From: Octopus vulgaris
Lineage: Eukaryota
DNA length: 64,000 nucleotides
Direction: 5' to 3'
NCBI GenBank assembly: GCA_951406725.2
Contig: OX597815.1
Location: forward strand, 91,946,001 to 92,010,000
Part shown: positions 51,475 through 62,129 of the stretch, in pieces
Numbering within the stretch: the stretch's first letter is position 1
Layout of the letters: the number at the start of each line of letters is the position of its first letter
Notes under the pieces: model-generated
What the model was told of the DNA's origin: nothing
Seen by the model: only the letters and a program-made list of their open reading frames with translations
Database searches by the model: none
Program-made: the position numbers and the translations under genes

Positions 51475-51972
51475 GGCAAGACTCCCAGCCACTCTTCAAA
51501 AAAAATTTTTGTTTCAACACAAACCCCATTTTTTCGGCAATGGGGAATATGAATCTGCAAAAAAATTGGCAAAAATCGGCATTTTTAAATTACCACCCCC
51601 ACCCATTTCCTTCATTTTTTCACTCTTTTTAGTAATTATTTTTTTCAAAATATGTGGGAAAATGCAGAGATTATGATTCTGAATAAAATTTTTTTTAAGA
51701 ATTTTTTTTTTCTTTGTAAATATGCGAAAAATAGACATTAAGATTTAGACAAAAATTTCAAAATATTTCTGTTACAGTTAGGGTTTTAGGGTCAGGGTTA
51801 GTGTTGGGGAATAAAGTCAAAATTGAAGAAGTTGGGGCGAAAGGGGGTGGGGAATTTTCACAATGCTGATTTTTGGCAATTTTCCGGAACCTCCATATCC
51901 AAAAATGGGGATTTTTGGCAAAAAAAATTTTTTTAATTAAACAAATTTAGGAGAAGATGGCAGGGAGTTTCC
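51475..51972 (-). mobile_element. MITE with TTAGGG-like repeats; same family as 54617-55173, opposite orientation
   Basis: Ends GGCAAGACTCCC ... GGGAGTTTCC; internal sequence is reverse-complementary to 54617-55173; TSD not recognisable. Confidence 0.8.
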
Positions 51973-54616: not shown

Positions 54617-55173
54617 GGAAAGACTTCCGCCCATCCCCCACCACCATTTTCTCTCAAATTTGTTTATTTAAAAAATTTTTTTTGCCAAAAACCCCCTTTT
54701 TCAGATACGGAGGTTCCAGAAAATTGCCAAAAATCGGCATTGTTAAATCCCACCCCTTTCCCCACCCAAATTCTTCAATTTTGACTTTTTACCCCAACAC
54801 TAACCTTAACCCTAACCCTAATCCTAAAACCCTAACCCTAACCCTAAAACCCTAACCCTAACCATAACTACAGAAATGTTTTGAAATTTTTGACCGAATC
54901 ATAATGTCCATATTTTTCTGCATATTTAGAAAAAAAAATTCTTGAAAAAAAAATTTTTTCAGAATCATAATCTCCGTATTTTACCACATATTTTGGGGGA
55001 AAAATTTTCTGAAAAAAGTAAAAAAATGAAGGAAATGGGGTGTGGGGTTTAAAAATGCCGTTTTTGCCAATTTTTTTGCAGATTCGTATTCCTCATAACT
55101 GAAAAAGGGGGTTTGTGTCGAAAAAAAATTTTTTTAAAGGGGTGGTTTTGGTGGGGGGATGGGAAGTCTTGCC
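54617..55173 (+). mobile_element. MITE with 8-bp TSD and internal (TAACCC)n, probably Merlin superfamily
   Basis: CTGCTACT|GGAAAGACTTCC ... GGAAGTCTTGCC|CTGCTACT. Removing it restores the hAT frame LETTTTAT-DIYDELK. GGNRM ends with an 8-bp TSD fit Merlin. Confidence 0.85.
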
Positions 55174-55965
55174 CTGCTACTGATATATATGATGAGCTAA
55201 AAAATTACTTGAATGTCAACAATATACCAAAAGAGAACATAACATCTTGTGCTGCAGATGGTGCTATTATGATAGGCAAGAAAAAAGGCTACTTAAAACT
55301 GATGGAAGATGTGAACCCCAAAATACTTCTTGTGCACTGTGTTTATTAGTATCCAAAAATATGACTCCTTTTCTCAATGAGGTACTAAAACCAGTTATAA
55401 AATGTATCAATGCTATCAAAGCTAATGCCAAATGTGAGCATCTTTTCAAGTAATTTTGTGAAAATTCAAACTATGTGAGTCTTTTATCGCACACTGAGGG
55501 AAGGTGGCTCTCAAAGGGGAATTGCTTGAAAAGATTTATGGAACTATTTGATGTTCTTAGTGACTTTTTAAGTGACAAGCTTGAAATGAAGCACCTGCTA
55601 ACCATTGATAGTAAAGCATTTGTGAGTTATTTAACAGATATCTTTGAAAAACTGAATGTGTTAAATAAACAACTTAAAGATCAAATAAAACTCTTATTGT
55701 TATATTCGTTGAGGTATGTCAGAAAAATATTTCAGAGAAAATTTTTGACCAGTTTCGTTAACCAATGCTACTGTAGTTGTCATTGTGGATCATCTGAAAA
55801 TATAGGCTTCTGATTTGAAAGAAAGATTTTCTGATTTAAAACAAATTGATTTTCCAACATGGATGATGCAGGCAATGCTAGTGGATATATCTGATGTTTT
55901 GATACAGTGCCAAGAAGAACTCTCGGAAATGCAAAATGATGAGTTAGTTAAAACTTTATTCAATA

Positions 55966-57016
55966 CTAGCAGTATAACCCGGCCTTGCCCGGGATTAAGT
56001 TACAATTATTAAGCTAATCAAGTTCTTTATTTCAAACCAAACTAAGTAATATCGACGTCAAATTTGGGCAAAATCCGTTGAAATTGGGTATATTATATAT
56101 ATATATAATATCATATAATATAAATATATATGGGCAACAGACACGAACACACATGTACGTACGTACATCTATTGCATGTTTTGTGCATGCATACATGTTC
56201 ATAAACAGAAATGAATGGAAAAATGTAGTTAGATTTGTAGATTAACACTCACTCGATTTTTACTAAGAAAAATAATCGTTTTTTTTTGCGTGGAATCAAC
56301 TACTCTGGCCTCCTAATATGCTACAAAACCCTTTTTGTGGTCCGTGAAACGGAGTGGGTGTGTTGGAAGCCTCGGAAATTGTGCCCATTTATATTGTGCA
56401 ATTCACTGACAAATTGCTACTCACCTCTTTGTTGTTAAATAAATGGATTGTCAACAAAACACTTTTTTACTCGGCGTAAAATAAAAACAAAACTCTTTCG
56501 CACCCAAAGTAATGTGTGTGAGAGAGAGGGGGGAGAGAAAGATGAACGATTTAAAATAAATAAATGATTTAAAATAAATATATTGTAATTGTTGTGTGAG
56601 AAAGTATATATACTATGATTATAAAATATAGTGTCTTTCAAAAACATCCTGAATTTGAACACTATATCTTGTATTTAAGAAAAGACAAAACATTTTACAT
56701 TTTATGAACGTCATCACTTACTCTCTCTCTCCCTCTCTCACTTTGTCTTTCCCGTGAAACTCTCTGCTTCTCTTCTTCCACTTTTCTTTATCTTGTTCTT
56801 TTTTTTTTGTTAGACGCCGTCAAAAAGTTATGGCTGAAAATAGATTTTTACTGCTATCCGTGGGTGCCTCGGGAAAAAAATAAGTTGACAAAACCCAGAT
56901 AGGATGTTGACAAATGTCCTAAAATTTGAGCGACATGTGTGCTAATTTGTGGATGTGCATAAACTAAAATCACATACACACACACACACACACATCTTGC
57001 CGTATATATATACAGA
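55966..57016 (-). mobile_element. non-autonomous Helitron (element A)
   Basis: 5' a|TCTGTATATATATACGG at 57016; 3' hairpin CCCGG-GCAAGG-CCGGG followed by CTAG|t at 55966. Confidence 0.85.
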
Positions 57017-57035
57017 TATATATAAATATATATGT

Positions 57036-57172
57036 ATTCCCAACCACATACTTCTGGGTTCAGTACTATTGCGTGACACCTTGGGTAAGTGTCTTCTGCT
57101 ATAAACTCGGGCCGACCAAAGACTTGTGAGTATATCTGGTTGACGTAAACCGTAAGAAGCCCATCTTATATA
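57036..57172 (+). mobile_element. tRNA-SINE 5' fragment
   Basis: GGGTTCAGTAC..GACACCTTGGGTAAGTGTCTTC..GGGCCGACCAAAG, homologous to 50276. Confidence 0.75.
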
Positions 57173-57413
57173 TGTATAGATATAATTATAGTATATTCTG
57201 TTAAGAACATAGTAGAATACAGTATAAAGCTCGCTCGTCCACTTTCACATTTAAACTGTGCTTTCCAGTAGTAGTATTATATGTATTTCCAGGTTTGCGT
57301 TTGGGCATCTGTCGTGTGTGAATAGATAATTGAAAAAATTGGAGTCAACAAGAAGGGTACAGTTGGACATTTATTTTTTAATCACTACAATTGTTTGCAC
57401 GCAATGTAGTTCT

Positions 57414-57666
57414 CAAAAATTTTTCAGGAAAATTTTCAAAAAATTTTTCAAAAATTTTGGGGAAAATTTTCGAAAAATCTTTGGGTAAAATTTTCAAAAA
57501 ATTTTTCAAAAATTTTTCAAAAATTTTTGGGGAGAATTTTCAAAAAATTTTTCAAAAATTTTTAGGGAAAATTATCAAAAATTTTGGGGAAAATTTTCTA
57601 AAAATTTTCAAAAGGTTTTTCAAAACTTTTGGGGAAAATTTTCAAAACATTTTTCAAAAATTTTTG
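57414..57666. repeat. A4-5T4-5 minisatellite with ~10-11-bp period
   Basis: AAAATTTTC / AAAATTTTGGGG units. Confidence 0.95.
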
Positions 57667-58040
57667 AATCGCTGTTGTTTTCCATAATTAGACAATACCC
57701 CCACCCTTTTGACACAATTCAGTGATGTAAGCGATCTCTGAGACAATGTGATGTTTTGACCATATTGTGTGTGTCCTTTTAATTAATTTTTTTTTAACTA
57801 AACACTTTCAAACTTCCGTTACTGGTAGAATATGTCACATAGAACAGGGTTTACTCTTAACGTTTTGGATAAAATTTTGTGCTTTAGAAGTTATTTCGTC
57901 TGAAGTTACAGAGTGACAATGGACAAATTCGTGTTTGATAAGTGCCAATACACGAAACTCTCAGTTTTTGACTTACTCTCTAACTTCTGCCGATGATATA
58001 TATACATATTACATAAATGTGTAAAAAAAAATCTTATCAC

Positions 58041-58520
58041 GCAATCATGAAAAATAAGATTCTTAAGATTATAAACCTGGAAAAGTACAGGACAAGTTAT
58101 TACACCTGTAAGAGTATAGGACAAGCTATTACTTCAAGTAAAGAATAAGAAACTTTTTACTTAAAATATTGCAGCTAAAATTAAAATTTGAATATTAAAA
58201 ATTATTTTATTATAGTTTTCAAATAACACAATACATATTTAAGTACAATTTGGCTACTTTACTACTTTAAATACAGAAAACAGTGACTAATTAGAAAAAC
58301 TTGCCAATTAGCTGAACAGTTTTGTGCAATAAAAGATGAGAACTCTAAAGAGTGATAAATTAGAAGAAGTGGCATTCTTTGGTGCAATATTTTAAGTAAA
58401 AAGTTTCTTATTCTTTATTTTACTTGAAGTAGTAGTTTGTCCTATACATTTACATGTGTAATAACTTGTCCCGTACTTTTCCAGGTTTATAATCTTAAGA
58501 ATATTACTTTTCATGCTTGC
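58041..58520. mobile_element. fold-back/MITE-like element with ~135-bp imperfect inverted arms
   Basis: 58041-~58180 is the reverse complement of ~58375-58520, with scattered mismatches. Confidence 0.75.
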
Positions 58521-58538
58521 ATTTTTCCATGTATATAT

Positions 58539-58951
58539 ATATTGTTATATTTCGGAATGGTCATATTGCCAGTTTAGCCAATAAAAACACACGCACTATA
58601 TATTTGGTGTTATTTTGCTTCAGTGATATTTATTTTTTACATTAATCTTAATCTTATTTCGGCCAAAGTTCTTTCGTCACACTCCTGTGACCGCATCAGT
58701 GGTCCTTTGTTTTCTTCTCACTTAGAAATACAAAATGGCTGACGGTTAGTAAGGAGAGACACAAATAAGTGAGAAGAAAACAAAGGACCACTGATGCGGT
58801 CACAGGAGTGTGACGAAAGAACTTTGGCCGAAATAAGATTAAGATTAATGTAAAAAATAAATATCACTGAAGCAAAATAACACCAAATATATAGTGCGTG
58901 TGTTTTTATTGGCTAAACTGGCAATATGACCATTCCGAAATATAACAATAT
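58539..58951. repeat. perfect 186-bp inverted repeat with 41-nt spacer (Penelope-like inverted pseudo-LTR pair)
   Basis: 58539-58724 is the reverse complement of 58766-58951; each arm carries CTGATG..hairpin..GAAA followed by AATAAA. Confidence 0.9.
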
Positions 58952-59019
58952 CTGTTTCAACACACGACTTCACATAAAAAATCTTGCACAACAAATATTT
59001 AAACGTATATATATATATA

Positions 59020-61307
59020 CTAGCAGAGATACCCGGCGTTGCCCGGTTACATTCAATTGAAGAATTAGACTTTTGTGTTATATATATATGGATACACACA
59101 CACACACACATATATGTATATTAATATAAATACATGACAGTACATGAAGTTTGTTAAAAAAAAGGAGATCATGTATATACCTCCTGGCTGTTGAGATTAT
59201 AACACCTTGTAAACAATGTTCCTTGTCTAACAAAAAAAAACAAGATAAAGAAAAGTGGAAGAAGAGAAGCAGAGAGTTTCACGGGAAAGACAAAGTGAGA
59301 GAGGGAGAGAGAGTAAGTGACGATGTTCATAAAAATCTATTTTCAGCCATAGCTTTCTGACGGCGTCTAACAAAAAACAAAAAGGTTTCTTTTGGTTCCT
59401 ACTCTTGAGCAGCCAACATACAGTTGCCCATGAGAAGACCAGCTACAGAGAGGGTTTGACCCTGAGATTTGTTAATGGACATGGCAGAGCTGACACGAAG
59501 TGGGAATTGCAGTCTTCTGAATGTAAATGGAATTTCTGTTCCTGATGGAGTAAGAGGAATTCTTGGAATAAAGACATCATCACCTTTTCCACATCCAGAA
59601 AGAATGATCGCCTCGATAACGTGTGACATCATTTTCTTTATCACCAGTCGTGTTCCATTGCAAAAGTTGAGTGTGCTGTCCTGCCACTGGGTAACAAAGT
59701 AGCTGCAATGCCAGAGGAGGCTACAGCTACTGCAATGTCCTGATGCTTCCCAACTTCTGCGAGGAGAAGCTTTGTAATAAATGTTTTTCCTGTCCCTCTA
59801 GGAGCATCGAGGAAGAAGATTCGTCCCTCGCGTTGGCATACACTGTTAAGAATAGTTCTGTAGGCCTGCAGCTGGTCCAGAAGTAATTTAGGCTCATTTT
59901 CAACAATGTACTTTGCAAGCGCTTGAGTGTCATAGGTTGTTTCACGAATGACAGCAGTGGGAAGGCTATTTGACCCTGACCTGAATGCTTGTGGCAGGCC
60001 ATACGTCGACAATTCATTTCCACCCAGTTTAGCAATTCTGTCTTCAATGTCAATGAGTGTTTTGTTATAGATCTCATTGCTGATACTCTCCATGTCAGGA
60101 TAGAGCAGTTGAGCTTGACACTGAAAGTCTTCAGCCAGGTTGTCTCCATATTTGAGCCATAGAGTGGCCGGATCACACAGTTCGCATGCCTGTAGTAATA
60201 CTGCAAATAGTGCCCTGAGACTTTTAGGTGATTGTGATAAAGCAGCCTCTCCTAAAGTTGCATCCCATTGTGCACCATCTTCTAACAGACCTTGTCGATA
60301 GCAGGCTTCTCTGTATGTTGTGCAGACATGTCCATGAACGGTTTTTAGGGCCTGGAAAGATGTTGGCCCTCTGACCACATGCTGTAGTAGACGAAGGTAG
60401 AAGCACTCTTGTTGAGTGGGATGCACTATGTATACTCGCCCAAGGCAAGTGTGAAACTTAATGCCAGGGTATCCATGAACATTTTGACCTGCTTTCCATG
60501 GGGCCCATTTTTTTCCATTCCAAGTGTAGTACGATGGAATCTGTGGATACAGCAAGGTTTGAGCGAATGGATCCACTTGACAAAGCTTGAAGAATGCAGT
60601 GAGTGTGCTATCCCTTGGTTCCTCTGCCAACAGAGAAGCATTAGCATCAGTGAAGTACACTCTTTGACCATTTTCCAGGTGCACTGCAAGCTGTTGAATG
60701 GTGGGGTGTTGTTGGTGAATTGGAAAGCCAAAGATGCACCAGAAAGCCTTGTTGCTACTTATGTACTGTCCCACCTGATAATGCATCACCTCATCCTGGC
60801 AGTATTCTTGTTGAAGTCCAAACATTACAGCGTCAGAACCCTTGTTTACACATTTTCAAACATACTTGATGGATTTAAGGAGTTGCGAAACTCAACGTTG
60901 ATGTGGGCATTGAAAGTCTTTGACAGGAGTGGGCAGTATGGAACAATCCATCTATTATCAATATCATGCTATCTGATAGTGCTGTGAAACCTCTGTCTTC
61001 TGGTTTTCTGCATCTGTATAATGGATACCCATCAGCACCTGTCTGAGTTTCTTGTAGGAACCTCCCTGGAAATCTTTTTGAACATATACTGTCCTTCAAG
61101 CATGGTGAGTTTATGATGAATCCACGCCCACATGGACCATGTACCATGTTTGCTTTAACTATTTCGTATAGTTCTTTGTCTAAAGCTGGATCAGGAAGCT
61201 CTGCAGAGATTATGTTGTCGATGTCATTGGAATTGATCTTCGCTGAGAGCCAAAGCAGGATATGAGCATGTAGAAGGCCCCTTTTTTGCCACTCGATTGT
61301 GTAGAGA
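59020..61307 (-). mobile_element. Helitron with truncated, internally deleted Rep-Pif1 helicase pseudogene (element B)
   Basis: YTIEWQKRGLLHAHILLW (HUH), MVHGPCG..GYPLYR, LAVHLENGQ, FYLRLL..GPTSF, DAPRGTGKT (Walker A), SSGIAATLL..GRTAHS, LCNGTRL, RRLQFP..MSINKSQGQT, SHGQLYV..SRV, RNIVYKVL* (stop 59197). The 3' end is a hairpin plus CTAG|t at 59020. Confidence 0.93.
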
Positions 61308-62129
61308 TAAAAGGAGTGACGTCATGGTTTTGTGATAAGCCAAATACCCAAATTCAACCAACTTTGCAAGAAAATTGTTATTACCATTCCCATCTTCATA
61401 TTTAGCTGAATGTGGCATTAGTGTTGTAAATGATTTGTTATTGAAGAAAAGAAATCGACTGGATATCACTAAACAAGGAGACTTGAGACTAAAGCTGACT
61501 AAATTGGTGCCTAATATAAAATCTCTCTGTAGCAGGCATGAAGCACAAGAATCTCACTAACTTTAGTTTACTTATTTTATATTTCTGCGTTTCAGTTCTC
61601 TGTCATATGTTTACTGTGTCTTGCTCGACACTGTTTTGTGTAGTATTATGACGATGTACTTCGTTGTCAGCCTGACTGGCCCAACGACATACCTCGCTGA
61701 CTTGTTATGTCTGTCAACTATTTATTTGTAGTTGAACAGCCCACTTCTCTGGCTTGCGGGTGTCCTCCACAACAATGTTTTTGCAACTTTATTTATTTAA
61801 CTGTCCTTCTGTTTTTTATATTTTTCTCTTTCATGAATTCCATGTTCTTTGGAAGCTTGTTTAGAGACCAAGTTAATAACCTTTTAAGCTTCCTCCAAGT
61901 GAATAGTAGTAAAATTTTGAATAACAAAAATCAAATATCACAGAAATGTTTCAGTGGGGCATGGCCAAAAATTAGTTGGGAACCACTGGTCTCAACCTTC
62001 TATGATTCTGTTTTCAAGTCACGTCTGTTCTCAAACCTACTTCCACTGTCCTCTTCCCTTCTGTTCCTTATCTTGGAGTAAATGTGTTGTTGTGACTGCA
62101 GATGGTACTGCAGCTATAAGATAACAAAG

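Follow-up and report, generated by a model that had tools for sequence, protein, structure and literature searches.

How does a block of DNA with two Helitron 3′ ends, two TC starts and unrelated repeats between them come to occupy a single transposon target site? The question is raised by a stretch of 64,000 nucleotides from Octopus vulgaris (contig OX597815.1, positions 91,946,001 to 92,010,000; the window), in which a block of 5,342 bp (55966–61307) sits exactly between A and T in an older element. This host element is presumably a hAT transposon, as an earlier note on this DNA labels it. The earlier note had read the block as a composite of two Helitrons, a defective element B and an element A, with 2 kb of captured cargo, and the two 3′ ends, two TC starts, A4T4 array and both palindromes (186-nt arms of 100% identity, 58539–58951; 102-nt arms of 91% identity, 58041–58520) were all found where it had placed them. 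A third Helitron, Z, which supplies the 5′ end, had been missed. Genome-wide comparison shows the block to be one decayed member of a chimeric, non-autonomous Helitron family with many copies, not a one-off. The composite (Z head, broken RepHel B, repeat cargo and A end) very probably originated when transposase acting in trans ran past the terminator of B and stopped at that of a neighbouring A.

Fifty candidate loci of 10–17 kb each were picked via the cargo repeat P or via the junction of A with (TA)n and a piece resembling a short interspersed element (SINE), dispersed copies of which were seen at many loci. The family 5′ head and the CTAG end of A were both present in 16 of the 50, at a distance of 2.0–8.4 kb, with A|TC at the start in 11 and CTAG|T at the end in 13. 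The 3′ flanks of these 16 loci were unrelated, except for one off-register 77% repeat match, and segmental duplication was rejected as the source of the copies for this reason. The search for other copies with the order B, cargo and A, which the earlier note had proposed, returned many with unrelated flanks; the same order and the same junctions recurred on many contigs, and the parent parts Z, B, P, Q and A were also found as free families. Composite loci, named C01–C20, are pairs of adjacent stretches (L146–L165 and L126–L145); a gapped pattern joining the inner end to P recovered only three loci, missed known ones and gives no count.

Matches to P of at least 93% identity had B directly upstream in 17 of 17 cases, and those of 90–92% identity in none of the 12 examined; the latter are free copies of P, which extends ~2.3 kb further when free. 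For the linker beside P, the genome holds 20 matches, of which three are weak and 17 have at least 90% identity; at least 14 of the 17 are in loci mapped as composite, and the linker is likely to be captured host DNA. Divergence within composites was 4.0% for P and 5.2% for A, against 8.9% and 8.2% from free copies; since both are closer among composites than to free copies, P and A were copied together from one source. Rep lay at a median of 2.1% from the column majority, close to the within-composite values of P and A. The TC at 57016 is the true start of A, free copies of which begin A|TCTGTATATAT with flanks of their own (L171, L173, L175, L180, L183 and L196), and the hairpin of A (55978–55993) with its CTAG closes the composite as the outer terminator. 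The proposal that a defective B was mobilised as a unit with cargo and A holds in that the parts moved together many times, but not in that this insertion was the capture event, the composite having formed earlier and elsewhere. Internal deletions were frequent among composite copies, often reaching into the A4T4 array and ending there. One composite copy (L140/L160, G000:C4:171037197-171054196) has an array of several kb and a duplication of the 3′ part of B and the start of P.

The insertion itself was precise. On the minus strand its start at 61307 is a|TCTCTAC and its end at 55966 is CTAG|t. With the left hAT flank as query, 13 distinct paralogues were found, 12 of which reach the insertion site; the empty site ...AATA|TAAAA was unbroken in 10 of the 12, the other two having indels of their own there. 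As the left flank runs into the right flank in these 10 paralogues, the insertion neither lost nor duplicated host bases, in agreement with an A|T insertion without target site duplication, and a deletion at 61307 that also removed hAT bases did not take place. The upstream part of the hAT element is interrupted by long inverted repeats (76–85%) at 51500–51960 and 54640–55115, enclosing ~2.7 kb, and by a short AACCCT array at 54791–54868.

The origin of the 5′ part of the family was traced to Z. The first 0.96 kb of B matches this free non-autonomous family, of which 395 exact terminators are present in the genome; the B head sequence stood directly before the Z terminator in 29 of 30 sampled, and the same start lay within 1.5 kb in 13 of the 30. 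B leaves Z ~35 nt before the Z terminator and continues with (CA)n, SINE and a Rep fragment. B itself is thus a chimera of a Z copy without terminator joined to a broken RepHel. From the nesting of the ends, we infer that the order of joining was Z, then B, then A. The first Z–B chimera may have had a fuller RepHel, because three B copies (L061, L064 and L065) retain as much as 1 kb of additional N-terminal Rep sequence, with different deletion junctions. A full RepHel frame was not found among the scored B-type matches, a lower-bound search in which the longest open frame was 995 aa. Helitron heads were also seen directly behind other Helitron ends (L321, L338, L350, L370, L336 and L064), including short head-to-tail Z repeats, and such adjacency is raw material for chimeras. 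Two loci, L260 and L281, share the same 510-nt sequence (93%) behind B-type ends, which begins like another Helitron and is possibly a second composite family.

The 3′ end of B, now the inner terminator of the composite, had been described as weakened. Its stem is CCCGG/CCGGT, as described, against CCCGG/CCGGG in the outer terminator, and the two fold as DNA at −4.7 and −5.3 kcal/mol respectively. The last 24 nt of the B end have 469 exact copies in the genome, the first 30 of which, on contig C1, were sampled. A perfect CCCGG stem was present in none of the 30, so that no weakening specific to this copy is seen, and no P stood behind the end in 29. B helicase was upstream of five; the remaining 25 belong to families with the same end. 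The ‘weak’ hairpin is the family norm and a working end in 29 of the 30 places. As the B end folds slightly weaker than that of A, a family-wide difference in strength between the two is possible. The terminal hallmarks of a Helitron are present: a 5′ TC, and a 3′ CTRR preceded, ~11 nt from the end, by a short hairpin. The two internal junctions are (TA)n target sites of the A|T type. Among C01–C17 the inner end was deleted in 10, had lost its hairpin in one, was changed at single positions in three and was intact in three; it is intact in the window, C01, C03, C11 and L340.

On this account, the composite would have formed and spread in three steps. A Z copy lacking its last 35 nt would have been read into a SINE and a RepHel Helitron and taken the B end, giving the Z–B family. 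One Z–B copy would then have stood in (TA)n, with a co-oriented A copy ~2.5 kb downstream of it, and a single read-through would have caught the intervening repeats and founded the composite, which was presumably amplified in the same burst, its copies being ~2% from the common sequence. Thereafter a sub-lineage would have deleted the inner terminator, and the window copy, which kept it, would have landed in the hAT element and, in the process or afterwards, shed parts of its head (1.39 kb), helicase (760 bp) and P (700 bp) and acquired a 150-bp fragment of A in inverted orientation, with a Penelope-like insertion following much later.

Several observations weigh against this account. No donor locus, with cargo and A clearly without B, was found among the loci examined, the linker search included, and the one unplaced linker match is a fragment only. 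Z could have been joined to B by deletion or recombination rather than by transposase read-through. The Rep tree (35 rows, with nine short rows left out) is a star without a well-supported branch, on which the composite label is clustered, requiring 2 changes against 6.8 when shuffled, but composites formed one clade in 0% of bootstrap trees; since the star is unresolved, the tree cannot prove one origin. More telling, and in favour of the account, is Rep base 60428, which is not a CpG site and marks the composite: T was present in 18 composites and one short copy and C in two composites and eight short copies (Fisher p 9e-5, with 12 unresolved C loci left out). The two composites with the free-type base, C01 and C13, would need recombination between long and short forms.

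A candidate helper for B-type copies is a second Helitron family, represented by L380 (G000:C2:38215000-38222999), with 23 matches of 57–58% protein identity, many of identical score. Its open frames reach 1,744 aa, and its start TCTCTCTATATATAAA and hairpin resemble the ends of Z and B. The family is apparently young and looks younger than the composite burst.

Alternatively, recombination or deletion between Helitrons and (TA)n tracts may have produced the chimera in the first place, with ordinary rolling-circle transposition copying it only afterwards. In favour of this, almost every junction falls in a microsatellite, the composite family often shows deletions at short repeats, and the Z terminator is missing by deletion. 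Against it, the composite still contains the B terminator and both A|T-type junctions in intact form, so that the B end had to be passed when the composite was first mobilised; we consider a recombinational origin improbable.

The 5′ junction of the window copy had been read as either a cryptic start at the HUH motif of Rep or a deletion-fused end. The TC at 61307 abuts the host A and precedes the YTIEW codons by 4 nt, as would be seen if transposase had nicked within Rep and moved a short form. Among 29 further Rep copies, the tetranucleotide ahead of YTIEW was CATG (25), CATA (2), CATC (1) or part of another junction (1), and in none was it TCTC; the single copy that comes close, L019, reads CATCTAC. 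Other copies extend ~1.3–1.4 kb upstream to a start A|TCTC(TC)TATATATAAAACTGAG, and the window TCTCTA is exactly this family beginning, joined to TACACAATC at a shared TA. The TCTCTA–Rep junction occurs once in the genome, without a daughter copy, and no other copy starts there. With the family start 1.3–1.4 kb upstream and the junction unique, the 5′ end is the product of a private deletion of ~1.39 kb, and a cryptic start is very unlikely, the more so as the window copy carries three more private rearrangements.

These three, seen only in the window copy among the copies examined, are two losses (~760 bp of helicase and ~700 bp of P) and the placing of a 150-bp A unit into B in inverted orientation; the private changes arose either during or after insertion. 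The 150-bp insertion displaced ~18 bp of B, was detected as inverted repeats I4 and I18, and matches by up to 97.5% across the internal duplication junction of A in other copies. Rep (HUH) and PIF1 coding sequence of Helitron type is present as fragments only: the frame beginning with YTIEWQKRGLLHAHIL at 61303 gave a weak Helitron_like_N match (E 5.6e-5, below the Pfam cut-off) and the frame after it matched PIF1 (E 1e-19, Pfam). The RepHel remnant is 93–96% identical to other copies and is frameshifted near 60970–60850, and with its deletions holds no intact RepHel frame in the window copy. The features of the block are listed in the table.

Features of the composite block and its host element, in window positions, ordered from the left flank
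Feature	Position	Strand	Remark
Host element, taken as hAT-type, left flank	55666–55965	+	Paralogues 79–91% identical run on into right flank
Element A, complete 1.05-kb non-autonomous Helitron	55966–57016	-	Free copies exist; 209 exact terminators
Truncated SINE-like piece and (TA)n	57017–57170	.	Junction to A has 30 exact copies in genome
Cargo Q, end fragment of another dispersed repeat	57175–57414	-	Free copies 86–87% identical
A4T4 minisatellite, 11–12 nt unit	57413–57665	.	Several kb in other copies
Linker	57668–57780	-	Found chiefly in composite copies
Cargo P, 5′ portion of a distinct family of dispersed repeats, with foldback	57778–58533	-	Private ~700 bp deletion at 58041
Penelope-like copy, truncated and inverted part, short tail	58539–59006	.	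Forms perfect palindrome
B 3′ end, inner terminator (hairpin 59032–59047 and CTAG)	59020–59226	-	Family-standard sequence
Inverted 150-bp insertion, private	59227–59376	+	One tandem unit of element A interior
Helicase C-terminal remnant	59377–59661	-	Adjoins private ~760 bp deletion at 59662; other copies keep ~760 bp
Broken RepHel of Helitron B, HUH motif to PIF1 helicase start	59662–61303	-	Translation, Pfam
Family 5′ end remnant TCTCTA, from Helitron Z	61302–61307	-	Fused to Rep at shared TA
Host element, taken as hAT-type, right flank	61308–61700	+	Contiguous with left flank in 10 of 12 paralogues reaching site

The perfect palindrome had been counted as cargo. The sequence of 58539–59006 shows 0–2 mismatches in 250 nt to each of 29 copies, none of which adjoins B. 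The truncated and inverted layout with a one-sided tail is present, the spacer between the inverted parts varying in length across copies, and longer copies have a GIY-YIG-like frame (Pfam E 5e-4, 20.8 bits against a cut-off of 22.6). The palindrome appears to be a very young Penelope-like insertion into (TA)n behind B, made long after the composite arrived; ~470 bp of the supposed 2 kb of captured cargo is this later insertion. The notion that every piece was inserted separately at the window locus is true of this far younger piece in its own (TA)n, but for all other parts sequential nesting is refuted by the same order and junctions on many contigs and by a host site that lost and gained nothing, and as a whole it has next to no probability. 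Each palindrome arm contains a core (CUGAUG, stem, GAAA; 58770–58850 on the plus and 58640–58730 on the minus strand) that we read as hammerhead-like; Rfam and fold tests gave this reading no support, the scan yielding sub-threshold hairpin matches only and the folds of the candidate not improving on those of shuffled sequences (z from about −1 to 0.5). Penelope-like elements, as far as described in PMC8557442, form inverted truncated copies with a one-sided tail at (TA)n targets, and the copies found here resemble them in the inverted repeat, the tail, the (TA)n target and the C-terminal GIY-YIG-like frame of longer copies. They differ in a tail of ~55 nt, against 30–40 nt in that account.

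Whether the inner terminator was often ignored was assessed from base 60428. The exact motif occurs genome-wide with T in 10 loci and C in 72. Nine of the T loci are composite and one stops at the inner end; of the nine, four keep the inner end (two with a point change), two belong to the sub-lineage that deleted it and three lost it in larger deletions. For Helraiser, experiments put read-through of an intact end at ~11.7%, alongside 3′ transduction seen in cells and ends arising de novo in Myotis, according to PMC4778049. The octopus Helitrons resemble that system, as portrayed there, in A|TC...CTAG|T, the hairpin terminator and probable read-through even with an intact end. Unlike it, again as portrayed, the marked octopus lineage has long products keeping the inner end in excess of short ones by 4 to 1 (binomial p 0.0008 against 11.7%); the figure has n=5, some copies escape an exact-match search, and the single short copy may be older than the capture. 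Elsewhere, B-type ends gave one in-register pair among 40 flanks; with no frequent 3′ transduction, general leakiness of these ends is disfavoured. It is conceivable, though rather doubtful, that an intact family-standard terminator, after gaining a second terminator downstream of it, was mostly read through in the germ line. If true, terminators would compete, and nested terminator pairs in genomes would be a direct measure of their strength in vivo.

The model of end bypass put forward by Feschotte and Wessler (2001; updated by Tempel et al., 2007), as outlined in PMC4224331, fits what was found here, namely ends from different Helitrons that also occur alone and a unit moved whole to unrelated sites. 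The octopus family resembles HelibatN539 of vespertilionid bats, as the account in PMC4224331 presents it, in having one Helitron's 5′ end and another's 3′ end, with capture and amplification of the intervening DNA. By comparison with that account, the octopus cargo is repeat debris and not a gene, three Helitrons are chained, and a donor locus is known in the bat case whereas none was found in the octopus loci examined. Maize helitron_mc2 and helA, according to PMC3288121, are likewise multi-copy, with internal 3′ ends, stepwise growth from neighbouring or nested Helitrons and internal losses. By contrast, 99 of 100 internal ends are reported there to lack an intact CTAG, and the octopus inner end is intact in several copies. 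No description of the composite family was found in the literature on Helitrons and octopus that was covered, including the accessible part of PMC13282606; repeat libraries and supplements lay outside that scope, and the family may already be in a curated library.

The bypass mechanism has already been published for bat and maize Helitrons; distinctive here are the three-part chain, the survival of all the parents and the intact inner end. With no captured gene and a mechanism known from the literature, the family is of modest wider interest. The family offers a worked example of a stepwise three-Helitron chimera, with parent families surviving in one genome and a marker base separating long from short products. 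For annotation it carries a warning, as such units would be broken up into many unrelated repeats. In this genome, Helitrons have carried an expandable minisatellite, along with other repeats, to dozens of places.

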